Below, one piece after another: positions 31,754-55,028 of a stretch of DNA of 64,000 nt; the first letter of the stretch is position 1, and each line of letters opens with the position of its first letter. Made by a program: the position numbers and the translations under genes. Where the stretch lies: positions 56,966 to 120,965 of the forward strand of contig CAZXAU010000001.1 of the NCBI GenBank assembly GCA_964638675.1, written 5' to 3'. The stretch comes from an uncultured Lachnospiraceae bacterium. GTDB taxonomy: Bacteria; Bacillota; Clostridia; Oscillospirales; CAG-272. The notes under the pieces are model-generated. The model had not been told where the DNA came from. It did no database searches and worked only from the letters and a program-made list of their open reading frames with translations.

Positions 31754-31761
31754 TCAATTGA

Positions 31762-37556: not shown

Positions 37557-38679
37557 TTTCTATAAACATTTTATCATATGTTTTTCCCGAATGGTCTGTG
37601 ATCTGACAGCCTATGCCGTCTTGCTTTACTGTCAGAGCGAGGCCTTTATAGCCAACAACCTGTCCGGCATCATCCCTTACGAGCATTCCCGAAACTGCGA
37701 TAGGGCAGGGCAGAAGTCCATAGCTGTCAAGAGCTCCTTTTTTGTCCGAAAATACCGTTTTGTGAAGGTGACCCGATATCATGAGATGCGGCTTTATATT
37801 TTCACCGATAAGTTTCAGCCATTCACGGTATATATCGCCTTCGATATCAAAGGGAGGCTGATTTTTAAGGCAGAAGGGAATATGACTTATGACGATTCTG
37901 TACTCGGCAGAGCTTTCCATATACTCCGATTTTCTATTTTCAATGACTTTTTTTATAAATTCGGTTTCTGCCTTGCGGAATATATGACATACATCGGTGC
38001 TTCCGTATTCGGGATGTGAATCGGGCTTATCCTCGCCGCAGTCAAGAACGATTCCCCATATTTTCCCGAGTCTGAATGTATAATAAGGTGTTCCGTTTTC
38101 GTTTGGGGTGTAATTTTCGAGCATTTCGGCGTATCTTCCACGGAGATCATGATTTCCTCTTGAAAATATACAGGGATGCTCTCCTTTTGTTATCTCTTCG
38201 CAAAGAGCAAACATAAGATCAAAGTTTTTTATATTGTCACTGCTGTCGTTGATATCACCGTTAAGTATCAGAAGATCTATATCATCCCCGAAGTATTTTC
38301 CTGCCATAGCGGGATATTCGTAATTCCCATGCGTATCTGAGAGTATGTAAATGTTGATATCACCGTCTTTTCTGACAGGGACGAAATTGAAGGATATCTC
38401 CACGGTCTCTTCGCTCTGCGTGAAATACGGCTTTCTTTCTTTGATTTTTCTGTATCTGAGAGTGTACATACCTGCTTCATCCAGCTTTGAGATCGGAACC
38501 TTGATCTTGTGGACGAGCCCGAGCGATCTGCGTATACCACCCGAATGGTCAAAATATTCGCTGTCACCGATTTTTATACTGAGAAGAATCTCGCTCTTTG
38601 TCAGAACAATAATTTCATAATTATTTCCGCAAGCAAACACCGCAGGCGTAAAGCGTATCTCTTTAAGTTCTTTTTTCAT
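37552..38679 (-). CDS. Calcineurin-like metallophosphoesterase
   Basis: Motifs ILSDTHGN, LNGDINDS, SRGNHD, SGHLH. The start is taken as ATG 38679 (MKKELK); the alternative ATG 38691 lies inside repeat B. Confidence 0.8.
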   Translation of the reverse strand: MKKELKEIRFTPAVFACGNNYEIIVLTKSEILLSIKIGDSEYFDHSGGIRRSLGLVHKIKVPISKLDEAGMYTLRYRKIKERKPYFTQSEETVEISFNFVPVRKDGDINIYILSDTHGNYEYPAMAGKYFGDDIDLLILNGDINDSSDNIKNFDLMFALCEEITKGEHPCIFSRGNHDLRGRYAEMLENYTPNENGTPYYTFRLGKIWGIVLDCGEDKPDSHPEYGSTDVCHIFRKAETEFIKKVIENRKSEYMESSAEYRIVISHIPFCLKNQPPFDIEGDIYREWLKLIGENIKPHLMISGHLHKTVFSDKKGALDSYGLLPCPIAVSGMLVRDDAGQVVGYKGLALTVKQDGIGCQITDHSGKTYDKMFIEK

Positions 38680-38812
38680 ATTTATAACCATAGCTTTCGC
38701 ATTGCGAAAGCTTCCTTTCCTGAGGAATTGTGGCTGGTTTTGTGAAGCAAAATCGCCGCCGCGACGGCGGCGAAAGCCACAAAACGCCGTTTGAAAGATT
38801 TATCTTTCAAAC
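38680..38812 (-). repeat. Intergenic repeat family B, copy 1 (ends at the phosphoesterase start codon)
   Basis: On the minus strand: GTTTGAAAGATAAATCTTTCAAAC - GGCGTTTTGTGGCTTTCGCC - hairpin - GGCGATTTTGCTTCACAAAACCAGCC - GAAAGG - AAGCTTTCGCAATGCGAAAGC - ATGGTTATAAATATG. Confidence 0.9.
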
Positions 38813-38820
38813 TTCTCTCT

Positions 38821-39759
38821 TTATTTTGTTCTGCTCAGCTTTTCGTTTGTCCAGCTGATAATGTCGTCATATATCTGTTCTCTGTTTATCTCACTCAGAA
38901 GATCGTGCCGTGCCTCGGGGTATATGTTTGCTTCAATATCAGATATTCCGAATGATTTATATGCCGCACCGATCTTCCTGACATCCTCGCCGTACATTCC
39001 GACAGGATCATCTTCGCCCGAGAGTAATAATATAGGCAGCCCTTTGTCGGTCTTTTCATAGGTCTCATTGCTGTTTGCCCTGAGCTGAAGGGACAAAAGA
39101 GCGGCGAGTGATGAAACGGTAAGACGAAAACCGCATTTTGAGTCGGATATATATTCATCTGCTTTATTTTTATCTCTTGTAAGCCAGGCAAACGGTCTGC
39201 CCCTTTCGCATCTTGAATTGTATGAGTCGAAAATAAGCTTTTCGCAGAATTTTGAATAGCTCCTTCTTCCATTTGACTGCGCTAGGGTTTCGGCAAGTGC
39301 AAGTGCAAATCTTGCCGATGTCCGGGGCGTTCCGCTTCCGCAAATGAGTGCGGCATCAAACAATCCCTTTTTTGCACGGGATATCGCCATTCGTGCAATA
39401 AGTGATCCCGACGAGTTGCCGAAGATCACAAGCGGAAGTCCTTCATGCTCTGCCTTGATACGCTCTGCATCGTAAAGAATATCCCCGACAAGTGCATCAG
39501 CGCCCGCTTCGAGCGGAATATGTCCTAAGTCTTTAATATCTGTGACAGAATCGCCGTGTCCGATATGGTCGTGGCAAACAGATATATAGCCGTTGTCGCA
39601 GAGATGATCCATAAAAGGGACGTATCTTTTTTTATGCTCAGCCATTCCGTGAGAAATGATGAATATGCCCTTAGGCTCGGAATCGGGCATCATCTTTATG
39701 CCACGAAGGGTAGATATGTCATCGCATGACTGAATTGTGTATTCTGTAATTCTGTTCAT
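38821..39759 (-). CDS. Alpha/beta hydrolase (lysophospholipase / monoacylglycerol-lipase-like)
   Basis: HGMAEHKKRY oxyanion region, nucleophile elbow GNSSGS, and a C-terminal ARHDLL His motif. The start is probably ATG 39759 (MNRITEY) rather than the TTG at 39786. Confidence 0.8.
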   Translation of the reverse strand: MNRITEYTIQSCDDISTLRGIKMMPDSEPKGIFIISHGMAEHKKRYVPFMDHLCDNGYISVCHDHIGHGDSVTDIKDLGHIPLEAGADALVGDILYDAERIKAEHEGLPLVIFGNSSGSLIARMAISRAKKGLFDAALICGSGTPRTSARFALALAETLAQSNGRRSYSKFCEKLIFDSYNSRCERGRPFAWLTRDKNKADEYISDSKCGFRLTVSSLAALLSLQLRANSNETYEKTDKGLPILLLSGEDDPVGMYGEDVRKIGAAYKSFGISDIEANIYPEARHDLLSEINREQIYDDIISWTNEKLSRTK

Positions 39760-39805
39760 AAGCTCTCTCTGTTTTTTATAAATCAAATTCCGAATTTTTC
39801 GTATA

Positions 39806-40060
39806 GGAAGGGAAGAGGAGGGGAGGGAAGAGTGAAGAGTGAAAAGTGAAGAGGTGGATAGACCAATTAATTTTGAAAAAAATTGATAAAACGTGTGGGG
39901 GAGGGGGGCCCCACATGACGGCTACGAATCAAGCGGCTACAGCTTCAGCACCACTTCAGCGAAGCCCCATACCTTCCCTCTCCAATAAAGTCTTTGAGGG
40001 GGGAGGTGACATTTTCTGTTGAAAATGTCACCGGGGGAACTTTCTACAGAAAGTTCCCCC
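39806..40060 (-). repeat. Intergenic repeat family A, copy 2 (starts 14 nt after the rlmI-like stop)
   Basis: The reverse complement aligns block by block with 3212-3447. It has two tandem hairpins (GGGGGAACTTTCTGTAGAAAGTTCCCCC and GGTGACATTTTCAACAGAAAATGTCACC) and a pyrimidine-rich tail. Confidence 0.9.
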
Positions 40061-40073
40061 ATATTAAATCATT

Positions 40074-41309
40074 TCAAACCACACGGAAAATGTAGAATTT
40101 AAGGTATTCGGTCTCTGGCATATTCCAGAGGATCGGGTGATCGCAGGCTTGTTGCCTGCCTTCGATCTGCATAAGAGATACGCCGGCGTCCTTGGCGGCT
40201 TCGCTTAGCATTGAGCAGAAATAGCTGTCTCTCATAAAATGTGAGCAGGAGCAGGTTGCGAGATATCCGCCTCTCGGCATGGCGCGCATTGCAAGGGTGT
40301 TCAGCCTTAGATAGCCTTTATATGCATTCTTTACGGTGTCTCCCGATTTGGTAAAGGCAGGGGGATCGAGAATGATGAAGTCATAAAGCTTTTTAGAGCT
40401 GTCGACAAGCTGTTGCAGATAGTCAAACATGTCCGAGCGAACGAAATCAATATTGGTAAATCCGTTCAGTTCGGCGTTTTTGCGAGCATTTTCAAGCGCA
40501 GATGCCGATACATCGAGCGCAGTAACGCTTTTCGCACCGCCGGCACAGGCATTGAGGGCAAATGCCCCAGTGTGAGTGCATACATCGAGAACCGACGAGT
40601 TTTTTGCAATTTTACGGATTGCAAGCCGATTGTATTTCTGATCGAGAAAATAACCGGTCTTCTGTCCGTCTATATAATCGACATTGTAGAGTATCCCGTT
40701 TTCGTTTATAATGCATTTTCCGTCAGAGCTACCGAGCAGACCGTGGGCAGAGTAAAAGCCTTTGTACTTTTCCATTCCCTCGAGTAAACGTATTTCACCC
40801 TCGTTACGCTCGTAGATCACATCGATCTTCTCACCGAGCGAGGACAGCTCATCAAGCAGAGCATGATAGATAACATCTTTCCGCAGTTCAATTCCGAGTG
40901 ATAGCACTTCGCTGACAAGCACATTTCCGAAACGGTCGACAGTAAGTCCGGGGAAGCCGTCAGCTTCTCCGAAGATCAAACGGCAGCATTTGAAATCGTC
41001 TCCCGGCATCGTCTTGAATCTGTAAGATACAGCATAAGATACACGGCGTCTCCAGAATCCACCGTCAAAACGGTCATTTGCGTTTTTTGAGAGGACACGC
41101 AGGGCAATCTTTGAATTGTTGTTGTAAAATCCGCTGCCGAGATAATTACCCTTTTTACCGATAATGTCGGCAATGCAACCGTTTTCAAGCGGTAACTCTC
41201 CTTGGATGCGTTCGGCGATCTCATCACGGTAAACCCACAGATGACCGCCTTTCAGGCTTTTTTCAGCTTTTTCGCTGACAATAATTGAAGAATAAGGTCT
41301 TTGTTTCAT
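40074..41309 (-). CDS. rlmI: PUA-domain class I SAM-dependent rRNA (cytosine-C5) methyltransferase, RlmI-like
   Basis: The 411-aa protein has an N-terminal PUA-like region (GHLWVYRDEI), the SAM motif VLDVCTHTGAFAL, and ILDPPAF. Confidence 0.75.
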   Translation of the reverse strand: MKQRPYSSIIVSEKAEKSLKGGHLWVYRDEIAERIQGELPLENGCIADIIGKKGNYLGSGFYNNNSKIALRVLSKNANDRFDGGFWRRRVSYAVSYRFKTMPGDDFKCCRLIFGEADGFPGLTVDRFGNVLVSEVLSLGIELRKDVIYHALLDELSSLGEKIDVIYERNEGEIRLLEGMEKYKGFYSAHGLLGSSDGKCIINENGILYNVDYIDGQKTGYFLDQKYNRLAIRKIAKNSSVLDVCTHTGAFALNACAGGAKSVTALDVSASALENARKNAELNGFTNIDFVRSDMFDYLQQLVDSSKKLYDFIILDPPAFTKSGDTVKNAYKGYLRLNTLAMRAMPRGGYLATCSCSHFMRDSYFCSMLSEAAKDAGVSLMQIEGRQQACDHPILWNMPETEYLKFYIFRVV

Positions 41310-41352
41310 TGTTATTATATGTTTGTGTTATTTAAGAATCCTGATTTGTTGT

Positions 41353-43956
41353 TTATATGTTTTCGTCAAGCCACTTCCATCTGCTTTCGATAAAATCTCC
41401 AAGATATTTTATCTGTTTTGCATAGGTGTTGTATTGCTTGATAGACGAATCCTCACAGCCTACACGCTTGTTCAGAATATCCCACTTTTCAAAGTTGTAG
41501 TCTGCCGAGCGTTCGACAAGTGCCGAATATGTGTTGACCGTGTTTCTCATGTTTTCAAGTATGTCGTACTTGACTTCGTCCCATCTTAGCTTGAAGAGCT
41601 CACGGAAATATGGGTCGTTGATAAGATAAACCATCCAGTTATCCCAGATATAGTCGCTTGTTGTGTCTGCTGTTGCCCAGGTCGAATATGTCTTGTCATC
41701 CTTCCAGAAATTTCCGAAAGCGTTATCGAAATCCCACAGCGGCCCCATGGTGAGTTTGCCGCCTGCATCTTTTGTAAAATAACAGCTTCTTCTGAAGCAA
41801 CAGTCTATATTATAGCTGAGCTCCTGAATGATCACCCAGTCAATCAGGGCACCCATATCTATATATTCCCAATAGCCGTCGCTTGCCATGACCGATTTAT
41901 CGGCGTTTACCGTCCAATTTTTGATAAAAGCGACCTGCTCTTTTGTGAGCGTTCCCTCATCGGGGGCTTTGACCTTTACATACTTGCAAAGGGTCGTATA
42001 GAAGCAGGTTTCATTCCATACATCGGCAGACGATGTTCCGCCGATCTCAAGAAGATACCCTGTATCGGTATCGGAGCCGTTGTCGGCAAGCTCGACTCTT
42101 CCCGAATTTGCCTGAAGCTGTTCGCCCATCGTGTATACACCGACATACTCTCCGTTGAAAAAGAGGTCAACAGGGTACTGAGTCGGGGTATATGAAAGAT
42201 TTGAAAGAATTTTTCCTGCCTCGGTTGCAACGGTGTTCCTGATAAGTGATTTATCCGAATAATTCGCAAGCAGTACCCATTGTTTATGAGCCTCAAGACC
42301 GAAAACTGATACCTTTGAATCAAATTTGATCTTATACGGCTTTTTGTCCCACTTCCAGGTGGAATGCCCACGTCCTCGTATCTGTATATTTTGCAGATCT
42401 ATCTCATCAAAATACGGGCAACCGTCGGTATTCATATAAAAGGTTGCGTTTTGATATTCTTCGTTTGATTCAACCGCAGAGCCGCTCTGTGTATTGATTA
42501 CGACCACAGGAAGAGCAGAGGGCTGATAATCCGCTTTGATAAGATATCTGCTTGTCTTGCCGTTTTTGTCGGTGACATTCAGATAGCATCCGCTGTCATA
42601 AAGCAGATTGACCGTTCCATCATCGCTGAGAACCGTTTTATCAAATTCTACCTTTCCGCCGTTTGTGGCAGTGTATGTGAGTATAGCACTCTCGAGTGTA
42701 CGTGTATCAACGATGCAGTCGATCGTTGCACTCAGTACATAGCCGTCTGCACGGAAAAATATATCACGGGTGAGATTTTTATTGTTCTTTTTGAGAAGAG
42801 ATATCATTGAAAGCACCGAAGTACTCTCACCGCCGAGCACGTAGTCGCTGGGGGCAATGCCGTTCACAGAAAGAACATCCATGACCGAAACTATATCAAG
42901 CATTGAAATTCCCTCATTCCTCGGGATGCTCCATGTGATCTGAGCCTGTGCGGCATTGATTTTTATCGGAATATCGGGAAGCGTAACATTCTTGCCTGAT
43001 GAAAATGTCATTTTACATTTTTGGTCGGTGTCAATATTTATGGCTTTTTCGAGTGTGACGCCGTCAGCAAATTCAATCGAAACAGGCATACTGAAGTCAA
43101 TTTCGCTTTCGATCGTATAATTGCCCGAGAGCGTGAGCTTCGTATCGGGGTAAAGGTGCGGCAGGCACTCGTTATCAATAAGATCGAGCAATTCTTTTTC
43201 GCTGAATATCTTTATACTGTTGAAGTCAAGAACCCTTCCGTTGTATGCATACACGCGAAGATAGTAGGTCGGATTTGCGACTATCTTTTTTATTGTCGGA
43301 ATTTTGAGTGTCAGATTTTCGGCTTCGGCAAATATATTACTCGGAGAAAATTCTCCGTCGCCCTCTTCGCTGATTCGCAGTGTTCCTTCAAGGGCGGTAG
43401 ATATATAAAGCATTTCGGGCGAAAAGACACAATCCTTTATGCCGATAGTCAGAGGTCTTTCAATATTAAAGCGGCCCGAAGATATATTGATCGGTATAAT
43501 GACAGTGTCATACAGAGCAGTTGATGAAAGCATTACAGCCAATTCATCGGCGTTGAAGGGGTAGCCTACAAGTACAGTCGAGCCATCCTTTTCGTACCTG
43601 ACCTCGATCGAAATAAGCGAGCTTTTTTCTACGGCAAAGCTGTGCTTTTCTCCTGCCTCAACTATAAAATTCTTTGAAACTACATCATCTCCCGAGAGAC
43701 ATTTGAGCGTAAAGTCATATCGGACATCCGAAGTGTTTTCAACTTCGATCGTTTCGTTTCCGAGCTCGGTAATAACGCTTTCGGGTGGCTCAGGCGTTCT
43801 GAATATTGTACCTGTCTGTGAGCCGGTGACAGTAAATGAGAGCGATTCACTCGGTGGGGGATCTTCTGTATGACAGCCCGGAAAGGCGAGAATTATCAGG
43901 AGCAGAATAAGAGCAAAAACAGATATATGTCCGATCCTTGTTTTTGATTTTTTCAT
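41353..43956 (-). CDS. CotH-kinase-family protein with N-terminal signal peptide and Ig-like region
   Basis: Signal peptide ending AFPGC. The C-terminal half has typical CotH blocks (IRGRGHSTWKWDKKPYKIKF, WVLLANYSDKSLIRN, PVDLFFNGEYVGVY, LWDFDNAFG). Confidence 0.75.
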   Translation of the reverse strand: MKKSKTRIGHISVFALILLLIILAFPGCHTEDPPPSESLSFTVTGSQTGTIFRTPEPPESVITELGNETIEVENTSDVRYDFTLKCLSGDDVVSKNFIVEAGEKHSFAVEKSSLISIEVRYEKDGSTVLVGYPFNADELAVMLSSTALYDTVIIPINISSGRFNIERPLTIGIKDCVFSPEMLYISTALEGTLRISEEGDGEFSPSNIFAEAENLTLKIPTIKKIVANPTYYLRVYAYNGRVLDFNSIKIFSEKELLDLIDNECLPHLYPDTKLTLSGNYTIESEIDFSMPVSIEFADGVTLEKAINIDTDQKCKMTFSSGKNVTLPDIPIKINAAQAQITWSIPRNEGISMLDIVSVMDVLSVNGIAPSDYVLGGESTSVLSMISLLKKNNKNLTRDIFFRADGYVLSATIDCIVDTRTLESAILTYTATNGGKVEFDKTVLSDDGTVNLLYDSGCYLNVTDKNGKTSRYLIKADYQPSALPVVVINTQSGSAVESNEEYQNATFYMNTDGCPYFDEIDLQNIQIRGRGHSTWKWDKKPYKIKFDSKVSVFGLEAHKQWVLLANYSDKSLIRNTVATEAGKILSNLSYTPTQYPVDLFFNGEYVGVYTMGEQLQANSGRVELADNGSDTDTGYLLEIGGTSSADVWNETCFYTTLCKYVKVKAPDEGTLTKEQVAFIKNWTVNADKSVMASDGYWEYIDMGALIDWVIIQELSYNIDCCFRRSCYFTKDAGGKLTMGPLWDFDNAFGNFWKDDKTYSTWATADTTSDYIWDNWMVYLINDPYFRELFKLRWDEVKYDILENMRNTVNTYSALVERSADYNFEKWDILNKRVGCEDSSIKQYNTYAKQIKYLGDFIESRWKWLDENI

Positions 43957-44190
43957 AATGGTTCTAAATCTCCGTATACTTTTTTCATTCGATCTATTAT
44001 AAAATCAAGCTGATGTTTACCATAATCCATTATCGATTATAACCGATTATATCGGTCATGTCAATAGATAAAAAGTTAATAAGAAGTGAAGTTTGGGCGA
44101 AAAGAATGTATTATTGCTTTCGATATCTGTGAATTACTTGAAATTGATGATAAATATTGATTATATCAGATTATTTTTTTCAAAAAACTG

Positions 44191-44219
44191 TTTACAAAAC
44201 AAAGAGAATGTAATATAAT
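44191..44219 (+). promoter_or_regulatory. Promoter of cysS
   Basis: TTTACA, a 17-nt spacer, then TATAAT. About 175 nt upstream of ATG 44402. Confidence 0.65.
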
Positions 44220-44268
44220 GTAGGTAATTTATAATACATAAAATTCAATAAATACAAAAGGATAAAAG

Positions 44269-44401
44269 GTTTGAAAGATTAATCTTTCAAACAGCGTTTT
44301 GTGGCTTTCGCAACCGAAACGGTGGCGATTTTGCTCTGCAAAACCAGCCCCAATTCCGAAAGAAAGGAAGCTTTCGCAATGCGAAAGCTATGGTCAAAAA
44401 T
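44269..44401 (+). repeat. Intergenic repeat family B, copy 2 (ends at the cysS start codon)
   Basis: Same block order as copy 1. The palindrome is GTTTGAAAGATTAATCTTTCAAAC and the variable hairpin is ACCGAAACGGT. It ends ...GCGAAAGCTATGGTCAAAAATATG. Confidence 0.9.
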
Positions 44402-45847
44402 ATGAAGCTTTATAATTCACTTACAAGAACACGCGAGGAGTTTGTGCCGAGAGAGGAAAACAAGGTCAACATATATACGTGCGGTCCTACGGTATATCAC
44501 TTTGCACACATAGGAAATCTCAGAACATATATTATGGAGGATATTCTCGAAAAATATCTGAGACATATCGGATATGATGTCACGAGAGTAATGAACATAA
44601 CAGATGTCGGACACCTGACCAGCGATGCCGATACAGGTGAGGATAAGATGCTCAAGGGCGCAAAACGTGAGCATAAGACGGTCATGGAGATCGCCAAGTT
44701 CTATACCGACGCCTTTTTCTCCGATTGCAAAAAGCTGAACATAAAAACCCCCGACATCGTGAAGCCGGCTACCGAATGTATCGATGAATTCATCAAGGTC
44801 ATATCGTCACTCCTTGATAAGGGATATGCATATGAAGCGGGCGGAAATATCTACTTTGACACTTCAAAGCTCGAAAATTATTATGTTTTTCATAATTTTG
44901 AGGAGGAAGACCTTGAAGTCGGTGTGCGTGACGGTGTTGAGGCTGACGGAAATAAGCGGAACAAGGCGGATTTTGTACTTTGGTTTACAAAATCGAAATT
45001 TGACGATCAGGAACTCAAATGGGACAGTCCGTGGGGCGTGGGATATCCCGGATGGCATATCGAATGCTCATGCATTTCTATGAAATATCTCGGCGAATAT
45101 CTCGATATTCACTGCGGAGGCATTGATAACGCATTCCCTCACCACACCAACGAGATCGCGCAGAGCGAGGCATATCTCGGTCATAAGTGGTGCAATTATT
45201 GGTTTCACGTTCTTCACCTCAATACAAACAGCGGCAAAATGTCGAAATCAAAGGGAGAATTCCTCACTGTTTCTCTGCTTGAGGAAAAGGGCTACGATCC
45301 TATGGTATACCGTATGTTCTGCCTGCAATCTCACTATCGCAAATCGCTCGTATTTTCATGGGAGAATCTTGACAATGCAAAGATCGCATATACTAAGCTT
45401 GTTCAGAAGATCGCCGCAATAGCTGACGAGGGAGAGACAGATCCCGAAATGCTCGCAAAGCTGATATCCGATTTCAGATCGGCACTTGACAACGACCTTA
45501 ATACATCGCTTGCGATCACATCAATATACAATGTACTGAAATCGTCGGCAAACGGACATACTAAGCTTGAGGCGATCCGTATGTTTGATACAGTCCTCTC
45601 GCTCGATCTTTTGAAGGCTGCTGTAAAAATCAGAGAGGAAAACAAAAAAGCACAGTCTGAAAAGACAGATGCCGCAGAATCGGACGATCCGTTTATCCGC
45701 ATGATAAAAGAGCAGATCGAGCTTCGCAAAGCCGCAAAGAAAGCAAAGAATTATGCAGAAGCGGACAGAATAAGAAATGAGCTTGAACAAAAGGGAGTTA
45801 TCCTGACCGACACGGCACAGGGTACAGTATTTACCGTAAAAGTCTGA
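44402..45847 (+). CDS. cysS: Cysteine--tRNA ligase
   Basis: Canonical N-terminus MKLYNSLTR at ATG 44402. HIGH motif (HFAHIGNLR) and KMSKS (GKMSKSKG). 481 aa. Confidence 0.96.
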   Translation: MKLYNSLTRTREEFVPREENKVNIYTCGPTVYHFAHIGNLRTYIMEDILEKYLRHIGYDVTRVMNITDVGHLTSDADTGEDKMLKGAKREHKTVMEIAKFYTDAFFSDCKKLNIKTPDIVKPATECIDEFIKVISSLLDKGYAYEAGGNIYFDTSKLENYYVFHNFEEEDLEVGVRDGVEADGNKRNKADFVLWFTKSKFDDQELKWDSPWGVGYPGWHIECSCISMKYLGEYLDIHCGGIDNAFPHHTNEIAQSEAYLGHKWCNYWFHVLHLNTNSGKMSKSKGEFLTVSLLEEKGYDPMVYRMFCLQSHYRKSLVFSWENLDNAKIAYTKLVQKIAAIADEGETDPEMLAKLISDFRSALDNDLNTSLAITSIYNVLKSSANGHTKLEAIRMFDTVLSLDLLKAAVKIREENKKAQSEKTDAAESDDPFIRMIKEQIELRKAAKKAKNYAEADRIRNELEQKGVILTDTAQGTVFTVKV

Positions 45848-45989
45848 AAAATACATTTTTCAGACACCGTTTTGTGGCTTTCGCCTTGCGGTCTCCGCAA
45901 TCTGTACGGCAGCGATTTTGCTTCGCAAAACCAGCCCCAACTCCGGGGGAAAGGAAGCTTTCGCATAAGCGAAAGCAATGGTCATAAAA
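45844..45989 (+). repeat. Intergenic repeat family B, copy 3 (ends at the lipoprotein start codon)
   Basis: The conserved arms and the start-proximal hairpin (AAGCTTTCGCATAAGCGAAAGC) are present. The 24-nt palindrome is replaced by the hairpin CTGAAAAATACATTTTTCAG, which overlaps the cysS stop. Confidence 0.85.
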
Positions 45990-47306
45990 ATGAAAAAAAG
46001 ATTGAACCATTTATTTTCGATAACTGTTGCCGCCGCTTTGGTGATCCTGTCTGTATTGTCTCTGGCATCATGCAGTGTCATAGATGATTTTCAGCGGCTA
46101 GGTCTGCTCGGATGGCTGAATACCGGCGTAAAAAAGGGTGAAACCACGGCCACACCCACATCGGGTGTAACCGATTCGCCTTCTTCAACCCCGGGCAGCT
46201 CATCGGCCGACCTTACCATTGCGCCGTTTCCGACGGTTTTACCTGTTATTCCCCGATTTCCCGATATGCAGACGTTGTTATCGTCATTGGAACTCGATTT
46301 GACCAACGGGCGAAGTTTTATTATGTACATTTCCGATACGCCGAATGTCTATGCATTATACGGCGAAACTGTTGAAAAACAGAATTCGCTGATATCCGAA
46401 AAATTCGGATTTACGATCTCATCTCATAAGGAGAGTGCTGAGACTATAAATAAATTGGTTTCTGGCGAGGATTATTTTGCAGATCTTCTGTACATTCCGC
46501 TTTCTGAGGCTGTTTCACTTGCAAATAAAGGACTACTCATCCCATTTAATGAAGGGCAAGGAAATGGAAATGAGGAATTGTTTTATATAACGAACAGAAG
46601 CGATACTGCTTATTATGCTGTTCCCTCATTCAGCGTACCGTATGAGAGCAATATAGTGATATACTGCAACACAGATATACTTGCAAGAATGGGAAAGTAT
46701 ACCGACATCACGCAGGTGACGTCAAACGGAAGCTTTGATATCGGGCTTTTTTCACAAATGCTGAATATTTCGTCACTTCCGGAGGGAGTATGCCCTATTG
46801 TCAGTCGATTTGACAGCGGCAAGCTTGAAGGAATCTTATCGGCGGCGCAGGGATATACGGAAAGCAGTATTTCGGAGAGTGTTCTTGATGCTCTTACTGT
46901 AAAAAGCAGTGAAGATGCTCTTAGTGAATTCTATACGGGTAAGGCACTTTTCATGATTGCAGATATCTCAGATATAAGAGAGCTTTATGATTCGTATGAT
47001 TCATATGCTATATTGCCCATGCCTAAGGCAGATGCATCCGACAAGGATTATCCTTCACTGTTTGATTCGGACACTCTTTATGTTTATGCGATTCCGAAAA
47101 GTGCAGTGAATCTGTCGGCGGCAAAATCGTATATAAAGGCTCGCTGTTTCGCATCAAAATATCAGTTCAGATATGAGTTTGCCGAATCACTCTATTCGTA
47201 TTATCTCAGACAGGAGAGCTCGACAGCTCATCTCGGGGTATCACTTTTCAGCGGATTGTGTGATATTTGCGAGAATACTGAAAACACAGATGACACAGGT
47301 GAATGA
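45990..47306 (+). CDS. Hypothetical lipoprotein (solute-binding-protein-like size and context-free)
   Basis: Start at ATG 45990 (MKKRLNH). Lipobox LASC, a Ser/Thr/Pro linker, and a body of about 400 aa with no motif I can name. Confidence 0.6.
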   Translation: MKKRLNHLFSITVAAALVILSVLSLASCSVIDDFQRLGLLGWLNTGVKKGETTATPTSGVTDSPSSTPGSSSADLTIAPFPTVLPVIPRFPDMQTLLSSLELDLTNGRSFIMYISDTPNVYALYGETVEKQNSLISEKFGFTISSHKESAETINKLVSGEDYFADLLYIPLSEAVSLANKGLLIPFNEGQGNGNEELFYITNRSDTAYYAVPSFSVPYESNIVIYCNTDILARMGKYTDITQVTSNGSFDIGLFSQMLNISSLPEGVCPIVSRFDSGKLEGILSAAQGYTESSISESVLDALTVKSSEDALSEFYTGKALFMIADISDIRELYDSYDSYAILPMPKADASDKDYPSLFDSDTLYVYAIPKSAVNLSAAKSYIKARCFASKYQFRYEFAESLYSYYLRQESSTAHLGVSLFSGLCDICENTENTDDTGE

Positions 47307-47350
47307 TAAAGACACCGCAAAAAATAAATTTCTGAAGGGGAATTCCGCAT

Positions 47351-49633: not shown

Positions 49634-49795
49634 CAAAATAAAGAATCATAAGTGAAAAAATAATTGTTGTTATGTCAAAAATGCGTATGACGCTGTAAAA
49701 AGAGCCGAAAACTCTTGACAAAGAGGAATTTTGGATTTATAATCATTCATGTATTTGAATTCAGATTTAAACGGGTATTGTATTTGGGGTAAAAT

Positions 49796-51097
49796 ATGGA
49801 CGGTGTCGGGATAAAAAATGATAATCGAAGGATCGCTGTTATCGGCGGTGGAGCATCCGGACTGTTTTTTGCCTACCGTGCTTCAAAGCTCGGATGTGAT
49901 GTTGTTTTGTTTGAAAAAAACGAAAAATGCGGCCGCAAGTTAGGCATTACGGGTAAGGGAAGATGTAACCTTACGAACAACTGTCCGGTCAATGAATTCA
50001 TAGAGAATATTGTTTCAAACAAGCGTTTTTTATACAGTGCCGCACACGCCCTCTCTCCTCAGAAGGTTATGGAGATCTTCGAGGACGAGTTGCACGTTCC
50101 GCTTAAGACCGAGAGGGGAAACAGAGTGTTTCCGGTTTCGGATAAGGCAGGAGATATCGTATATGCACTCGTTCGAGGATGCGAGAAGAACGGCGTCAGG
50201 TTTATACGGGATAAAGTAACCGATATTGAATGCTCTGACGGCAGGGTCTGCGGAATTCACTGCGGGGCTAAAAAATATTCTTTCGACTGTGTTGTCGTTG
50301 CTACCGGCGGAAAATCATATCCGCTGACAGGCTCGGACGGTTCGGGATATATTCTGGCAGAGAAGCTCGGGCTGAAAATTACTGAAATCACACCCTCACT
50401 CGTTCCGCTTGTCACAAGAGAACGAGACGTCTGCGATATGATGGGGCTGTCGCTCAAAAATGTTGGACTGAGCGTACGTGATAACGAAAACGGTAAAATT
50501 GTGTTCAGCGATTTCGGAGAGATGATCTTCACACATTTTGGAATCAGCGGACCTATTGTTCTTTCTGCTTCGGCACATATGCGTCCGATTTCTAAGGGCA
50601 GGTTTTCGGTGATCATCGATCTTAAGAGTGCACTTGATGAAAAAACACTTGATGCGAGAATCCTTTCGGATTTTGAAAAGTTTAAAAACTGCGATTTCAT
50701 CAACTCACTAAAAGAGCTTTTGCCGTCAAAAATGATACCTGTTTTTGTGAAAAGGTGTTCGATTCCTGCCAATAAGAAGGTCAACTCGATAACAAAAGGC
50801 GAAAGACAGCGAATTGTCAGGCTTTTCAAGAATTTTGAATTTACTATAGACGGTACCCGACCGATATCAGAGGCGATCATCACGGCCGGCGGTGTGGAGC
50901 TTTCACAGCTTGACCCGAAAAGTATGGAGTGCAAGAGCATAAAAAATCTTTATTTTATCGGTGAAGTGCTTGATCTTGATGCCTATACCGGAGGGTTTAA
51001 TTTGCAGATAGCGTTTTGCAGTGCAAATGTTGCAGCACTCAATATTGTAAAGAAAATGACCGATATTTCACAAAATGACGGTAAAGTAGTAATATGA
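49796..51097 (+). CDS. HI0933/YhiN/BaiN-family FAD-dependent oxidoreductase
   Basis: GxGxxG motif (IAVIGGGASGLFFA), GKGRCNLTN, and the C-terminal YFIGEVLDLDAYTGGFNLQIAF typical of this family. Confidence 0.85.
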   Translation: MDGVGIKNDNRRIAVIGGGASGLFFAYRASKLGCDVVLFEKNEKCGRKLGITGKGRCNLTNNCPVNEFIENIVSNKRFLYSAAHALSPQKVMEIFEDELHVPLKTERGNRVFPVSDKAGDIVYALVRGCEKNGVRFIRDKVTDIECSDGRVCGIHCGAKKYSFDCVVVATGGKSYPLTGSDGSGYILAEKLGLKITEITPSLVPLVTRERDVCDMMGLSLKNVGLSVRDNENGKIVFSDFGEMIFTHFGISGPIVLSASAHMRPISKGRFSVIIDLKSALDEKTLDARILSDFEKFKNCDFINSLKELLPSKMIPVFVKRCSIPANKKVNSITKGERQRIVRLFKNFEFTIDGTRPISEAIITAGGVELSQLDPKSMECKSIKNLYFIGEVLDLDAYTGGFNLQIAFCSANVAALNIVKKMTDISQNDGKVVI

Positions 51098-51158
51098 TTA
51101 CTTTCATCTGCGAAAATATCGTAATTTGAGATAAATCTAACAGAAGGACTTATAAAAA

Positions 51159-51833
51159 ATGAAGCATATAAATATTGCACTCGACGGACCTGCCGGAGCC
51201 GGAAAAAGTTATTTGTGTAAGGAAATAGCGAAGCACTACGGACTTATTCATGTTGACACCGGTGCACTTTACAGAGCCATAGGGCTTTTTGTCAACAGAA
51301 GTCAGATATCAAAGGACGATAAGGAGGGAATCATTTCCTGCCTTGATAAGATTGAGCTTACGCTTTCATTTGTTGACTCTCAGCAGTGCGTAATGCTTTG
51401 CGGCGAGAATGTCAATTCGTATATCAGAACACCAGAGATATCTATGTACGCCTCGGCGGTATCAGCAATACCCGAAGTCAGGGCATTCCTTCTCGATACT
51501 CAGAGAAAAATAGCGGAAAAGGAAAGTGTCATTATGGATGGCAGAGATATCGGAACGGTCATTCTTCCCAATGCTGATGTTAAAATATTTTTGACGGCGA
51601 GCAATGAGGCGAGAGCTATGAGGAGATATACCGAGCTTTGCGAAAAAGGCATTGCCACCACTTTTGAAGATGTACTTTCCGATATAATACAGAGAGATAA
51701 ACAGGATTCAACCAGGCAGTCGGCACCTTTGAGGGCAGCAGACGATGCTGTGATCCTGGATAATTCAGGTCTTGACAGGCAACAAACTGTAGAGATGGCT
51801 ATAAAACTGATCGATGAAAATCTGATAAAATGA
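51159..51833 (+). CDS. cmk: Cytidylate kinase
   Basis: IALDGPAGAGKS P-loop, DTGALYRA and MDGRDIGT motifs. 224 aa. Confidence 0.95.
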   Translation: MKHINIALDGPAGAGKSYLCKEIAKHYGLIHVDTGALYRAIGLFVNRSQISKDDKEGIISCLDKIELTLSFVDSQQCVMLCGENVNSYIRTPEISMYASAVSAIPEVRAFLLDTQRKIAEKESVIMDGRDIGTVILPNADVKIFLTASNEARAMRRYTELCEKGIATTFEDVLSDIIQRDKQDSTRQSAPLRAADDAVILDNSGLDRQQTVEMAIKLIDENLIK

Positions 51834-52081
51834 TTTAATATTAGATATTCTATAGGTAATTTAAGTAAATATCATTGTAAAAAACGACAGAAAATGATAA
51901 TATCAATTTGATTTTTTAGCTAAAAGGGAAAAAATATTTTTTTTGTTGAAAACCCCTTTACAATATCCATTAAATTTGGTAAACTGACTGCATAGGTATT
52001 TTGAGAAATATGACTGAATCAGTATAAAAAGCAGTCACCGATCGGATTCTGATCGTAATTATATATATTAGGAGGTTCATA

Positions 52082-53221
52082 ATGAACGAAAACGAAAATT
52101 TTGCTCAGATGCTTGAAGAATCATTCAAGACTTTAAATACAGGAGATGTAGTTACGGGTACTATCAGGTCAATCGGTACAACAGAAATTACTGTTGATCT
52201 TCCCGCTAAGGTTACAGGTATCATTCCTTTTGACGAAGTTACAGACGATTCTTCTGTTAAGCTCTGCGAGCTTTACAATGAGGGAGATGAGATCTCCGCT
52301 CAGGCAATCAGAGTAAGCGATGTTGACGGTATCGCAACACTTTCCGTCAAAAAAATCAGACGTGCTGACAATTGGATCAAGATCAAAAACGGTCTCGGAA
52401 CAAAAGAGGTCTTCACCGGTAAGGTTACCGAAGTTGTTAAGGGCGGTGTTATTGTTTCGTCTAACTTTATCAAGGTATTTGTTCCCGGCGGAAAAACAGG
52501 TGTCTCCAGAGATGTTTCACTCGATACTCTCATGGGTCAGACTGTAAGATTCAGAATTATCGATATTAATGAAGAAAGAAACCGTGCTGTCGGTTCTATT
52601 CGTGATGTCGAAAGAGATGAACGCCGCGAGGAACGCCGTGCTCTTGTCGAAGAGTTCTGGAACAACATAGAGGTTGGTAAGGTTTATAACGGAACTGTTA
52701 AATCAATCGTTGATTTCGGTGCTTTCATCGATCTCGGCGGTGTTGACGGACTTGTTCACATTACTGAGCTTTCCTGGCTCCATATCAAGCATCCTTCGGA
52801 AGTCGTTGCTGTCGGCGATAAGATTGAAGTATTTGTTAAGTCATTTGACAAAGCAAAGAAACGTATTTCTCTCGGTCACAAAACAGAAGAGACTTATCCT
52901 TGGAATGTATTTATCAACAATTACGCTGTCGGCGATGTTGTTGACGTCACAATCGTAAGCATTCTCTCTTACGGTGCTTTTGCAAGAGTTATTGACGGTA
53001 TCGATGGTCTTATCCATATTTCCGAAATCGCTGACAAGAAGGTCAATGACACTAACGAAGAGCTTACCGTCGGACAGGTCGTTCAGGCGAAGATCATCAA
53101 TATAGACGACGAAAAGAAGAAGGTTTCTCTCTCTATCCGTGCTCTTATAGCACCTGCAACCGAAGAAGCTGCAGAAACTGAAGAGGTTTCTGAGGAAGTT
53201 TCAGAAGAAACAGCAGAATAA
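52082..53221 (+). CDS. rpsA: 30S ribosomal protein S1 (four S1 domains)
   Basis: Repeated S1-domain signatures (GDVVTGTI, GKVTEVVKGGVIV, GTVKSIVDFGAFIDLGGVDGLVHITE, GDVVDVTIVSILSYGAFARV). GGAGG SD upstream. Confidence 0.92.
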   Translation: MNENENFAQMLEESFKTLNTGDVVTGTIRSIGTTEITVDLPAKVTGIIPFDEVTDDSSVKLCELYNEGDEISAQAIRVSDVDGIATLSVKKIRRADNWIKIKNGLGTKEVFTGKVTEVVKGGVIVSSNFIKVFVPGGKTGVSRDVSLDTLMGQTVRFRIIDINEERNRAVGSIRDVERDERREERRALVEEFWNNIEVGKVYNGTVKSIVDFGAFIDLGGVDGLVHITELSWLHIKHPSEVVAVGDKIEVFVKSFDKAKKRISLGHKTEETYPWNVFINNYAVGDVVDVTIVSILSYGAFARVIDGIDGLIHISEIADKKVNDTNEELTVGQVVQAKIINIDDEKKKVSLSIRALIAPATEEAAETEEVSEEVSEETAE

Positions 53222-53231
53222 TCATTAATTC

Positions 53232-53266
53232 AGGTGATCCGCTTTTGCAGATCACCTGTTTTTTTG
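53232..53266 (+). terminator. Terminator of rpsA
   Basis: AGGTGATC cgcttttgca GATCACCT followed by GTTTTTTT. Confidence 0.85.
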
Positions 53267-53412
53267 CCCTTTAGAGAAAGGTCTCGGCAAAAACTTTGCT
53301 TGGAGATAAGACGTATAGCTGTACCGAATTCCTTAGCATTTTTTTCGGCTTTTCGAGAAAAGCCTTGGCAAAAGCTTTATTACCGGACAAAACATATAGT
53401 TTTACCGTAATT
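53267..53412 (+). repeat. Two degenerate tandem units of about 65 nt (family C, distantly resembling part of family A)
   Basis: The first unit is CCTTTAGAGAAAGGTCTCGGCAAAAACTTTGCTTGGAGATAAGACGTATAGCTGTACCGAATT. The second is GCTTTTCGAGAAAAGCCTTGGCAAAAGCTTTATTACCGGACAAAACATATAGTTTTACCGTAATT. Confidence 0.65.
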
Positions 53413-53416
53413 TGTG

Positions 53417-53552
53417 TCATACGATTTTTTCAAACATAAATGTTTGAAAAAAACCACCAAAAAGCAAATACTCCCGCAGATGAATGTAAACACTCATCGT
53501 ACGGGAGTATTTGCTTTTTGGTGGTCTTTCAGCATAGCTGAAAGTCGTATGA
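53417..53552. repeat. Nested four-hairpin element (closing stem plus three internal hairpins, one with a 23-bp perfect stem)
   Basis: The closing stem is TCATACGA/TCGTATGA. It encloses TTTTTTCAAACA..TGTTTGAAAAAA, then CCACCAAAAAGCAAATACTCCCG..CGGGAGTATTTGCTTTTTGGTGG, then CTTTCAGC..GCTGAAAG. Confidence 0.75.
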
Positions 53553-53600
53553 TTAATTTTTCAGTCAAGCACTTTAGGAGAAGTTTCTCGATTCCTCTTT

Positions 53601-54914
53601 TCAAAGAGGAATGGAATAATAGTTATCGCCGGCTATAATGGGAGTAGTGAAGAAAACTCTTGAGAGCTCAACGAGGGCAGCGGTGTCAGCTATGCCGGCA
53701 GTTTCATATGAAGAGTGCATAGCGAGCTGAGGCAGACCCACATCCGCAGAATTAATTGAAACCTTGGTGGTGGCAATTCCTCCGAGAGTGGAGCCGCCTG
53801 CCATATCGGATCGATTTGTATAAACCTGATATGGTATGTCGTTTTTGTTGCAGAGAAGTTTAACTACAGATTCGGAGACCGAATCTGTTGTATAACGCTG
53901 AGAAGCATTAAATTTGATTACGACACCGCCGTTGAGGGTAACACGGTTCTGTGAATCGGCGTATTCAGGGTGATTAGGATGAACTGCGTGAGCGTTGTCG
54001 CACGAAAGGAGGAAGGATGAAGCAAGAAGACAACGGAATTCCTCATCTGAAGCAGAAAGAACGATTCGGCGAAGAGTGTCAAAAAGGAATGTAGAAGCCG
54101 CACCCTGCTTGGTTGAGCTTCCCACCTCTTCGTTGTCGAAGCAGGCAAAAACAGGAACAGCTGATGAAGTGTGAGACGAAAGGAAGCCTTTGAGATTAGA
54201 GAAAGCGGATTGAAGATCGTCGAGAGATCTTGACGAAATGAATTCATCTGATGAACCCCAGATTTTTCCTTCAGAGCGGTTGTAAACGAAAAGATCCGTC
54301 CCGAGAATTTTTTCCTTGTCGACATTTGCGGCATCGGCAACTGCATCGATAATACTTTTTTTATCAGTGCCGCAGGAATAGAGCGGAACTGTATCGACAG
54401 AAGCATTGTAATTAAAGCCGGTATTGACAGAACCGTTCATGTGAATGGCTACATTGGGAATAAGGAGAATATCACGGTCAACATTGACAAGCTTGATCTC
54501 AATTCCGCTGTCGGTTTCGACAACGATTCTTCCGGCGACGGAAAGTGGTCTGTCAAGCCAGGTCGAGCAGATCATTCCACCGTAACGCTCGGTGTTGATG
54601 CGGACGAAGTCATTCCCCGAAAGCTCGCATTTGTCTTTGAGCTTGTAGCAGGGAAAATCGCTGTGCGAAGCGGCAATATTGAAGCCGGTTATCTCAGCGT
54701 TCGGAATGCGGAAAGCGATAATTGAAGAGTTGTTACGGATAACGAAGTATTTACCGCCGTTTTCAAGATTCCATTTAGAGCCTTCGCAAAGCTTGGTGTA
54801 GCCATCCGATTCGAGATAGTTTTTAATTGTATCTATAGAGTGAAAGGCACTCGGAGAAGCTTTGATAAAATCAAGAAGCTCACGGGAGAGCTCGGCGTTG
54901 TTGTATTCTTTCAT
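53601..54914 (-). CDS. M18-family aminopeptidase
   Basis: 437 aa. The N-terminus LLDFIKASPSAFHSIDTIKNYLESDGYTKL, plus AASHSDFPCYKLK, DNEEVGS and C-terminal HSSYETAG, are typical of M18 (aspartyl aminopeptidase-like) enzymes. Confidence 0.85.
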   Translation of the reverse strand: MKEYNNAELSRELLDFIKASPSAFHSIDTIKNYLESDGYTKLCEGSKWNLENGGKYFVIRNNSSIIAFRIPNAEITGFNIAASHSDFPCYKLKDKCELSGNDFVRINTERYGGMICSTWLDRPLSVAGRIVVETDSGIEIKLVNVDRDILLIPNVAIHMNGSVNTGFNYNASVDTVPLYSCGTDKKSIIDAVADAANVDKEKILGTDLFVYNRSEGKIWGSSDEFISSRSLDDLQSAFSNLKGFLSSHTSSAVPVFACFDNEEVGSSTKQGAASTFLFDTLRRIVLSASDEEFRCLLASSFLLSCDNAHAVHPNHPEYADSQNRVTLNGGVVIKFNASQRYTTDSVSESVVKLLCNKNDIPYQVYTNRSDMAGGSTLGGIATTKVSINSADVGLPQLAMHSSYETAGIADTAALVELSRVFFTTPIIAGDNYYSIPL

Positions 54915-55028
54915 ATTTTTATATGACCACCTTTCTTGTGGAATTTGGGCTGGTTTTGTGGAGCAAAATCGCTGTTACTATAACGGCGAAAGCCACGAAA
55001 CGCCGTTTGAAAGATTTATCTTTCAAAC
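54915..55028 (-). repeat. Intergenic repeat family B, copy 4 (ends at the M18 aminopeptidase start codon)
   Basis: On the minus strand: GTTTGAAAGATAAATCTTTCAAAC - GGCGTTTCGTGGCTTTCGCC - GTTATAGTAAC - AGCGATTTTGCTCCACAAAACCAGCC - CACAAGAAAGGTGG - TCATATAAAAATATG. It lacks the start-proximal hairpin. Confidence 0.9.

Follow-up and report, generated by a model that had tools for sequence, protein, structure and literature searches.

How does one and the same repeat come to end at the start codons of four genes? In the window, a 64-kb stretch of DNA, four copies of this repeat (family B) are found at 38680-38812 (-), 44269-44401 (+), 45842-45989 (+) and 54915-55028 (-), and each has the ATG of a long ORF directly 3' of it (Metallophos, cysS, a solute-binding lipoprotein and an M18 peptidase). 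From these copies it was argued that a phase lock to start codons speaks against a mobile repeat. We arrive at another answer, which is probable although far from certain: family B would be a non-coding, non-autonomous, MITE-like insertion element of ~115-150 nt that enters translation-initiation regions in sense orientation and brings its own ribosome-binding site.

Architecture and distribution of family B

A 22-base core, GCGATTTTGCTNNNCAAAACCAGCC, occurs four times in the window and not once in 100 shuffles, and a covariance model matches exactly four places with 105-163 bits: 38675-38812 (-), 44269-44406 (+), 45842-45994 (+) and 54894-55028 (-). The four copies of the original prediction are thus confirmed, with the start of copy 3 moved from 45844 to 45842. 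Copy 1, on the minus strand, begins with the 5' hairpin GTTTGAAAGATAAATCTTTCAAAC (38789..38812), whose helix 1 covaries across the family, followed by a long central hairpin (38737..38785) composed of P1 (GUUUUG/CAAAAC), P2 and a P3 with a variable tip. After this come the element-borne SD block GGAAAGGA (38713..38720; family consensus AGAAAGGA), the optional hairpin HP3, AGCTTTCGCAATGCGAAAGCT (38692..38712), and the tail ATGGTTATAAAT (38680..38691), which consists of a second SD-like block, UGGUNAU, and an A/U spacer and adjoins the Metallophos ATG at 38679. The 5' hairpin of this copy includes TTG-AAA, with TGA and TAA in the two remaining frames. Copy 2 (44269..44401, +) lies in the 5' UTR of cysS (ATG at 44402), with its 5' hairpin at 44269-44292, central hairpin at 44296-44344, SD block at 44361-44368, HP3 at 44369-44389 and tail at 44390-44401; a promoter-like TTTACA-17-TATAAT lies upstream of it at 44191-44219. 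Copy 3 (45842..45989, +) is located between cysS and the lipoprotein gene (ATG at 45990) and has the corresponding parts at 45842-45865, 45869-45931 (with a longer P3 tip), 45948-45955, 45956-45977 and 45978-45989. Its 5' hairpin, GTCTGAAAAATACATTTTTCAGAC, had been described as unrelated to the others, but corresponds to theirs, with two pairs changed in a compensatory manner. The TGA inside it is the stop codon of cysS. Copy 4 (54915..55028, -), upstream of the M18 aminopeptidase ATG at 54914, has its 5' hairpin at 55005-55028 and its central hairpin at 54953-55001. Here only HP3 is missing; the tail AGAAAGGT-GGTCATATAAAAAT-ATG is kept, a correction to the earlier description.

The 3' end of the element therefore reads AGAAAGGA, the optional hairpin, UGGUNAU, an A/U spacer of ~4 nt and the host ATG. 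The two purine blocks, AGAAAGGA and GGUGAU/GGUCAU, stand on either side of HP3 and become contiguous in the copy without it, where AGAAAGGT (54929-54936, -) continues directly into GGTCAT to give the extended SD AGAAAGGTGGTCAT. Both blocks are complementary to the 3' tail of 16S rRNA, AGAAAGGA to the 3' end UCCUUUCU, as judged by the established Firmicute anti-SD. GAAAGG had been named as the only SD-like run; weak purine runs also lie just 5' of copies 1 and 2, and relatives have a strong GGAGG directly 5' of the element. The in-frame ATGGTNANAAAN is indeed present in three window copies, but in the family ACG, GTG, TTG, AAG or CTG often replaces its ATG, or an in-frame stop comes after it; this ATG is therefore no conserved start codon. 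For annotation, this in-frame ATG and the upstream TTG/GTG create false N-terminal extensions, of which a 159-aa SmpB (P0123) and the window ORFs starting at 38691, 44390 and 45978 are examples. Leaderless mRNA starting from TATAAAT-ATG was considered as well and rejected, the -10 to +1 spacing, as judged from sequence alone, being unfit.

That the repeat is a real family is evident from ~70 copies, which come from ~35 MAGs of gut and rumen Clostridia and one prophage; the carriers are all MAGs, and the copies are related to one another, such that the counts do not represent independent events. A scan with the core only, blind to gene position, retrieved ~65 true copies in Clostridia MAGs. All 70 evaluable model matches are co-oriented with the next ORF, none being antisense to it, and the predicted single orientation and lock to start codons hold throughout: 59 of the 70 are followed directly by an ORF that has at least 100 aa or is cut off by the contig end, and five further copies adjoin ORFs of 50-99 aa (64/70 with at least 50 aa). 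The downstream genes are functionally unconnected across the family, as had been noted for the window. Copies are single units of 115-150 nt with rare partial duplications (L008, L055), and their number and subfamily vary from genome to genome. The distribution is patchy: 472 kb around 82 cysS orthologues contain no copy, and 444 kb of carrier loci only four unseeded extra ones. In curated plasmid and phage collections, family B had no match, and literature searches for a described Clostridia equivalent yielded nothing beyond the MIRU concept discussed below. It had also been stated that no named riboswitch or leader is recognisable here. Accordingly, Rfam 15 gave nothing on the element at the gathering score, at E<=1 (7 loci) or at E<=10 (1.9 kb of the window); Gut-1-like Rfam matches in L036 proved to be unrelated tandem GTGATAT hairpin arrays.

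Filled, empty and deleted junctions

The phase lock loses its force as an argument against mobility once the same junctions are viewed in relatives, where they occur empty, filled or internally deleted. Orthologues of cysS (up to 80% identical) have empty sites with SD-N7-ATG upstream of the gene. In one of them (L182, 80% identical), a plain intergenic spacer is also found downstream of cysS, i.e., the junction of copy 3 is empty too, and CAAAGGA occupies the place that matches the purine run AAAAGGATAAAAG (44256..44268, +) directly 5' of copy 2; this run is probably a relic of the native cysS SD. At the rnr-smpB junction, L021 carries a full element, L190-L193 (SmpB 95% identical) a short form with a deletion between two GCTTTCGC repeats, and L184-L189 (91-92% identical) none. 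The pth junction is filled in L068 and empty in L197 (89% identical) and L198/L199. The insertion point at rnr-smpB and pth lies 0-4 nt 5' of the ATG. Varying copy number and subfamily likewise argue for mobility, as do the native SDs stranded just upstream of most copies: 41/65 copies have GGAG/GAGG in the 18 nt preceding the element, as opposed to 3/65 and 8/65 in control windows further upstream, and the spacing from native SD to element NTG (6.6 +/- 1.2 nt) resembles the natural distance between SD and ATG with its peak at 6-8 nt. Most copies thus adjoin the gene's own SD on its 3' side, where it is left as a relic. Of the shared cis-acting 5'-UTR module that was first envisaged, the fold and the lock stand, and the ancient shared leader falls with the empty sites in relatives.

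A target-site duplication of 0, 1 or 2 nt (TA) fits two filled/empty comparisons, the junctions being ambiguous by up to 4 nt because the A/T termini of the element (TA...TA/TATC) resemble the spacer. A long duplication was considered for the 10-mer ATGGAGGGTA, which stands 5' of the element in L021 but 3' in L190; tails of unrelated copies resemble each other and not their own flanks, and ATGGAGGGTA is therefore no general duplication. The ends of the element, 5' (TA)GTGTGAAAA / (AA)GTTTGAAAG and 3' ...ATGGTGAT(TATC) / ...ATGGTCAT(AAAT), are not inverted repeats.

How would such an insertion be tolerated? We propose that the element integrates in sense orientation 0-4 nt upstream of the start codon, either between a gene's SD and its ATG or immediately behind the stop codon of the gene before it, and that it is tolerated there because its 3' end would serve as a complete ribosome-binding site for the host ATG, with the purine blocks as the likely working SD. 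The place of insertion and this 3' end, rather than an ancient shared leader, would then account for the phase lock and the one orientation. Co-transcribed with the gene, the element would fold into a 5' clamp hairpin, the long conserved hairpin and HP3, and this folded 5' part presumably acts to insulate or stabilise the mRNA, not to sense a ligand. From the junctions we infer that family B is or was mobile by a site-specific mechanism which recognises SD/TA-NN-ATG-like DNA or RNA. Several points count against the insertion reading. No partner transposase, recombinase or autonomous element is assigned to family B, and we know of no DNA-level mechanism that recognises start codons. The two differing states of the smpB junction need independent insertions or several rearrangements. 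Finally, the core is strongly conserved, above the synonymous level and to a degree not expected of a purely selfish insert in decay.

A further proposal for how the element finds its target, which we regard as quite unlikely, is that it homes to translation-initiation regions by mimicry and that the inserted RNA docks to the 16S 3' tail across the looped-out hairpin as a split 14-nt SD. The left junction (TA|GT-GTG-AAA) and the right junction (TA|NN-ATG) look alike, and joined ends (GGTGAT-TA-GT-GTG-AAA) would read SD-spacer-start; a dedicated recombinase, an RNA-guided or a ribosome-linked step could therefore use 'SD-N-ATG' as its attachment site. The inserted element would then be a natural portable ribosome-loading adaptor.

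The fold and the alternatives to insertion

A conserved fold with compensatory changes, in keeping with the RNA module first suggested, is borne out by the family alignment, in which 96% of cells are paired, nine pairs are changed on both sides and two hairpins covary; none of 500 shuffles and no slid control reaches the covariation score, and folding z-scores range from -3.7 to -7.6. This raises the question of whether the element is a cis-regulatory leader in which the central hairpin and the internal loops bind a protein, a small RNA or a ligand and thereby switch access to the SD, the repeated GCUUUCGC pairing either with GCGAAAGC or with the SD GAAAGG. Unrelated genes would then form a regulon under common translational control, and an element of mobile origin could have been domesticated to this end. 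We consider such a leader unlikely. In its favour, parts of the core outside the search pattern (GUUUUGUGGCUUUCG, CCCAAUUCC, AGAAAGGA) are nearly invariant in ~35 MAGs; the invariance of the core as a whole is in part ascertainment because the search used the exact core pattern. Orthologous copies are 95-100% identical compared with 78-87% at adjacent third codon positions, and conservation above synonymous sites therefore leaves room for a regulatory RNA role. Alternative folds with the duplicated GCUUUCGC are among the minimum-free-energy structures (L081), and predicted UUCC/GGAA pairing partly masks the SD block. However, the downstream genes have no common function, the essential cysS, smpB and pth are filled in one lineage and empty in near relatives, and Rfam offers no match even at the loosest threshold. 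Covariation favours local HP3, which changes with compensation in L038 and L011 while the core stays constant, over the long-range alternative; P1 and P2 never vary across the family and hence give covariation no test. The core GGCUUUCGCC could pair with the 3' arm of HP3 in all copies, yet covariation lends this no support.

The stranded SDs suggest another route, translational coupling as in MIRUs, which we think improbable. Ribosomes would load at the native SD, start at the element's TTG/GTG in place of the old ATG, read through and unfold the element, stop at a TAA/TGA beside the gene's ATG and reinitiate, with expression remaining under the native SD. The spacing from native SD to NTG is that of a natural start, MIRUs provide a precedent (PMC12548453), and 25/49 small upstream ORFs in the NTG frame stop within 30 nt before the ATG, compared with 25/98 for the two remaining frames, and another five are fused in frame to the gene. 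The tail TAAATATGA has stops in both non-gene frames, and window copies 1 and 4 finish with a TAA that precedes the ATG by 2 nt and 6 nt, respectively. Nevertheless, 19/49 of these ORFs stop early or overshoot, and an ATGA overlap is seen in only 2/49. In window copy 2 the ORF stops after three codons, while copy 3 has CTG and no upstream SD. A conserved leader peptide was rejected: because the linker varies by 1-5 nt, neither frame nor peptide is conserved, and stop positions are scattered. Nor is the element stop-free by design, as 0-2 stops per ~105 nt do not differ significantly from dinucleotide-shuffle means of 0.6-2.2 (P 0.04-0.66). In addition, the NTG is buried within a 10-bp stem, and the older copies of the window have a weak upstream SD or none, as if it had become dispensable.

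A signal at the DNA level, with the 24-bp palindrome as operator for a dimeric DNA-binding protein or P3 and UUUU as an intrinsic terminator or attenuator, is highly improbable: the TGAAA...TTTCA half-sites are invariant and might suit protein binding, but stem positions 2, 3 and 9 covary and the loop length varies, which fits a hairpin better than a fixed operator, one P1 pair is most often a U.G wobble, which points to sense-strand RNA, and a scan for promoter-like sites found none inside any copy. Intrinsic terminators have a GC-rich stem followed by a U-rich tract of about 7-9 nt; a terminator scan flags the P3 stem with TTTTGCT (in copy 1 only) and the 5' hairpins, but the U tract is only 4 nt long and lies inside P1/P2, and copies 1 and 3 are inside operons, where the downstream gene would be silenced.

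Family B among known repeats

Insertion near start codons brings several known systems to mind. Integron attC sites and Vibrio VCRs (60-140 nt) are likewise structured repeats that stand in one orientation immediately before the next ORF. Family B, however, lacks a cassette array, an integrase and R''/R' core sites; it is found among housekeeping genes on either strand, and orthologues are syntenic without it. Riboswitches would be expected before functionally related genes at conserved loci, and family B is absent from cysS, smpB and pth orthologues. IS200/IS605-derived PATE or REP/RAYT elements combine subterminal hairpins with a fixed target of 4-5 nt immediately before the left end and a cognate TnpA/RAYT. 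Family B has hairpins near both ends and is preceded, at a distance varying over 0-4 nt, by a purine-rich SD and no fixed motif. With MITE/REP-type repeats (ERIC, Correia/NEMIS, BOX, RUP, SPRITE) it shares multiple non-coding, co-transcribed, hairpin-forming copies, presence/absence polymorphism and genome-specific subfamilies. Those repeats have terminal inverted repeats or simple palindromes and occur in both orientations at varied intergenic positions, often 3' of genes, whereas family B has asymmetric ends without the terminal inverted repeats of a classical MITE, one orientation and an ATG junction fixed to a few nt. Split ribosome-binding sites, with a hairpin between SD and start, are known from phage T4 genes 38 and 25. 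Like these and synthetic bicistronic-design or insulator cassettes, family B would be a portable standard ribosome-binding module independent of upstream sequence, in which a hairpin may be looped out between the recognition elements; this likeness is a functional analogy only. For the engineering of Clostridia, family B could provide an off-the-shelf translation insulator.

Among known concepts the mycobacterial MIRUs come closest, but family B is not one of them. MIRUs are 40-100 bp long, often tandem (VNTR) and found in Mycobacterium/Actinobacteria (Supply et al., 1997, via PMC12548453, PMC3184786), and they contain an internal ORF whose start overlaps the upstream stop and whose stop overlaps the gene start by 4 nt (PMC12548453, PMC3184786). 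The two share short, seemingly mobile intergenic repeats at start codons or intercistronic junctions, oriented with the gene, as well as empty and filled sites and a tolerance thought to be due to preserved downstream translation. Family B differs in having no conserved ORF or frame, three or four hairpins, its own SD, single units and Clostridia MAGs as hosts. If our reading is right, an element of gut Clostridia, selfish or domesticated, enters the most sensitive bases of a gene without silencing it and would represent a second, independent case of the little-understood MIRU type, now with a defined RNA fold, which opens start-codon targeting to comparison.

Window copies and the fold of the element

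Each of the four Family B copies in the window runs directly into the ATG of a long ORF. Pfam identifies the products as a calcineurin-like phosphoesterase after copy 1 (38680-38812, minus strand), CysS after copy 2 (44269-44401, plus), a solute-binding lipoprotein after copy 3 (45842-45989, plus) and an M18 aminopeptidase after copy 4 (54915-55028, minus), genes as unrelated as the original prediction held. In an alignment of the four, mean column identity is 75% over ~135 nt, and a 22-base core is present at four places in the window versus never in 100 shuffles. A covariance model from 39 family members matches exactly these four copies in the window, with 105-163 bits. The predicted positions were thereby confirmed, except that copy 3 starts at 45842 and not at 45844. 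The 5' hairpin of this copy, thought to be unrelated to the others, proved to be the family hairpin, altered by compensatory changes in two pairs; by sequence, the cysS stop TGA (45845-45847, plus) lies within it. The last codons of cysS read ...ACCGTAAAAGTCTGA in the window versus ...ACCACTAAATAA in the orthologue at locus L182, and the window sequence has lost the native spacer and SD. In copy 4 the optional hairpin is the sole missing part; the tail is present.

The element begins with a 10-bp hairpin whose first stem bases are NTG-AAA (TTG, GTG, rarely CTG), with TGA and TAA in the two remaining frames. Next comes a long hairpin with helices P1, P2 and P3, GUUUUG-U-GGC-UUU-CGCC[variable tip]GGCG-AUUUU-GC-NNN-CAAAAC, followed by CCCAAUUCC and AGAAAGGA, the optional hairpin HP3 of 8-9 bp, and a 3' tail of (A)UGGUNAU, ~4 A/U and the gene's ATG. 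Across the covariation set of 39 sequences 96% of cells are paired, nine pairs are changed on both sides, and the covariation score is higher than in any of the 500 shuffles or slid controls. Helix 1 (the 5' hairpin), helix 4 (P3) and HP3 supply this support; P1 and P2 are invariant in the 39 sequences, partly through ascertainment since CAAAAC stood in the search pattern. One P1 pair is most often a U.G wobble, which favours a sense-strand RNA. Single-sequence folding z-scores run from -3.7 to -7.6.

Rfam places no known family on the element at any stringency. The only Rfam family above its threshold in the window is the TPP riboswitch (RF00059) at 31761-31857 (plus; 64.1 bits, gathering score 54.3). 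Two sub-threshold matches to Gut-1 RNA (RF01706; 43 bits, gathering score 50) at 5218-5297 and 6528-6607 (plus) of locus L036 consist of short GC hairpins in tandem arrays, with GTGATAT between the hairpins; they have no relation to Family B. A divergent pair of near-perfect sigma-70-type promoters, TTGACA-17-TATAAT at 44036-44064 (minus) and TTTACA-17-TATAAT at 44191-44219 (plus), occupies the AT-rich gap ahead of cysS, which places copy 2 inside the cysS 5' UTR. Another such promoter lies at 49715-49743 (plus).

A predicted built-in ribosome-binding site and its position before genes

By the established anti-SD sequence, AGAAAGGA is exactly complementary to the final eight bases of 16S rRNA in Firmicutes (UCCUUUCU-3'), and GGUGAU is the complement of AUCACC, adjacent in the 16S tail. 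In copy 4, without HP3, both SD blocks are contiguous, AGAAAGGTGGTCAT versus the ideal AGAAAGGAGGTGAT. Complementarity and contiguity together indicate that the 3' end of the element reads as an extended SD with a hairpin set in, followed by a normal spacer. This arrangement would explain the constant 12 nt between the predicted upstream ATG of the tail and the real start; as a start codon this ATG is not conserved across the family. In the window, mechanical or automatic ORF calls begin with the in-frame ATG of the element, which gives four spurious extra residues to ORFs 37552-38691 (minus; MVIN), 44390-45847 (plus; MVKN) and 45978-47306 (plus; MVIK). The JGI call for SmpB at L190 (P0123, 159 aa) also begins 12 nt too soon, with an in-frame ATG of the ATGGAGGGTATC stretch between a short element and the true start.

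The family was sought in one genome per species with the core only (CGATTTTGC-N3-5-CAAAACCAGC), a pattern that carries no gene-position information and favours conserved cores in the sample. At least 101 loci were found. Among the matches listed, about 65 are true copies, all in gut or rumen Clostridia MAGs (Oscillospiraceae, Acutalibacteraceae, Flemingibacterium, Christensenellaceae-like and Bianqueaceae-like groups) with up to at least 11 per MAG, and the others are chance matches in unrelated phyla. All carriers are MAGs or metagenome contigs. R1, the covariance model of the family, has 72 matches in 444 kb of sequence from these loci, all but four of them seeded, and no match in the 472 kb surrounding 82 cysS orthologues. 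The single orientation seen in the window extends to the family: wherever the 3' side could be read (70 copies), the element has the orientation of the ORF that follows. This ORF is at least 100 aa long or runs off the contig for 59 of the 70, and has 50-99 aa for a further five; the six exceptions adjoin short or broken ORFs or lie upstream of a second SD.

Subfamilies are genome-specific, told apart by their 5' hairpin, P3 tip and flanking dinucleotide (TA or AA). Rearranged copies include L055 3066-3191, with the SD-HP3-tail segment duplicated between 5' hairpin and core, and L008 1079-1233, with two cores in tandem; others occur at L052, L062 and L087. One MAG has an additional hairpin, GGAATTCCCGAATTTCGGGACGAAATTCC, inserted ahead of the SD block. 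The copy at L066 5325-5440 is without SD block and HP3, and its tail ATG starts an ORF of 9 codons with GGAGAG inside it; the TGA of this ORF overlaps the real start (ATGA), a layout resembling a natural bicistronic design. In the MAG of Clostridiales bacterium UBA11512, N runs (masked stretches of the collection) start inside the element at L006 and L095 (DPGD01000018.1); its other copies are 95% identical to one another. Searches of curated plasmid and phage collections returned no match to the element. A variant copy, which has another 3' hairpin and carries AGAAAGGAGG, immediately precedes the gene for a 692-aa phage tail protein (phrog_372, E 5.5e-92) in prophage-like surroundings on IMG/VR contigs and a Lachnoclostridium MAG (L195 139-280, L196 9619-9760 and L051 3608-3749, all minus), a possible route of horizontal spread.

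Filled and empty sites

Immediately 5' of the element there is often a second SD. Of 65 copies, 41 have GGAG or GAGG in the 18 nt preceding the 5' hairpin; control windows placed further upstream contain it in 3 and 8 of the 65. The sequence of this SD varies between copies even within one genome, and the flanks beyond are unrelated. It stands 6.6 +/- 1.2 nt from the element's NTG, matching natural SD-to-ATG distances at the same loci, which peak at 6-8 nt. Orthologous loci provide the empty sites. About 50 inspected cysS orthologues of the 80 fetched (at most 77% identical) read SD-N7-ATG with the site empty, and in L182, the closest relative (80% identical), both the site upstream of cysS and the cysS-lipoprotein spacer are plain. 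The rnr-smpB junction is filled by a full element in L021 (cggtggTAAtggagggTA[GTGTG...ATGGTGATTATC]ATGgca) and empty in L184-L189 (91-92% identical, dozens of contigs; cggtggTAGggaggtacaagcATGgca). In L190-L193 (SmpB 95% identical) it carries a short form (L190 1447-1517, L191 153-223, L192 883-966, L193 470-553) with the whole core deleted by recombination between its two GCTTTCGC direct repeats. The short form lies upstream of the native SD GGAGGG, and its first bases, TA+G, double as the rnr stop codon. The glmU-like/pth junction is filled in L068 (...gcagggaaaTA[GTGTG...ATGGTGATT]ATATGtat) and empty in L197 (Pth 89% identical; ...gcaggtcgtTAATATGtat).

At both junctions the insertion point lies 0-4 nt 5' of the ATG, and the target is best read as TA|NN-ATG; readings of a target-site duplication span 0-2 nt because the element termini resemble an A/T-rich spacer. 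From these comparisons Family B appears to be an insertion that leaves the native SD behind. The window copies are comparatively diverged (76% mean pairwise identity) and their upstream SD is weak or absent, which would be the expected look of older insertions.

The most likely mechanism, judged from sequence, is site-specific insertion in sense orientation into the SD-ATG spacer or, within operons, the stop-ATG spacer. The element's own 3' end would supply SD and spacer to the host ATG, so that downstream expression would survive, and the native SD would be left as a relic facing a TTG or GTG buried in a hairpin. The structured 5' two-thirds would be carried in the mRNA; their conservation suggests that mobility, the stability or insulation of the mRNA, or a regulator depends on them. 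Both junctions of the element read TA, then NN-NTG, and ends joined head to tail (...GGTGATTA|GTGTG...) would mimic an initiation region.

Conservation, translation and known systems

In three orthologous filled pairs the element is 95%, 98.5% and 100% identical, beside coding sequence of 91-94% identity and third codon positions of 78-87%. Identity above that of third codon positions points to purifying selection, to homogenisation by gene conversion or, less likely, to independent re-insertion. Frame and sequence comparison across copies excluded a conserved encoded peptide, and dinucleotide content accounts for the scarcity of stop codons inside the element. The case for translational coupling through the element, as in MIRU, is weak: 25 of 49 upstream ORFs read in the NTG frame end no more than 30 nt before the ATG, versus 25 of 98 in the other frames, but 19 of the 49 break the pattern, the copies counted are related rather than independent, and in window copy 2 a stop follows after three codons.

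Among known systems, Family B belongs neither to the riboswitches nor to attC, and it is probably no terminator. Nor is it a classical MITE, the element being without terminal inverted repeats and inserted in one orientation only. The nearest described concept is MIRU (Supply et al. 1997, after PMC12548453; also PMC3184786). In outline the two work alike, but Family B is not a MIRU, having no conserved overlapping ORF, no tandem arrangement and another size, host and structure.
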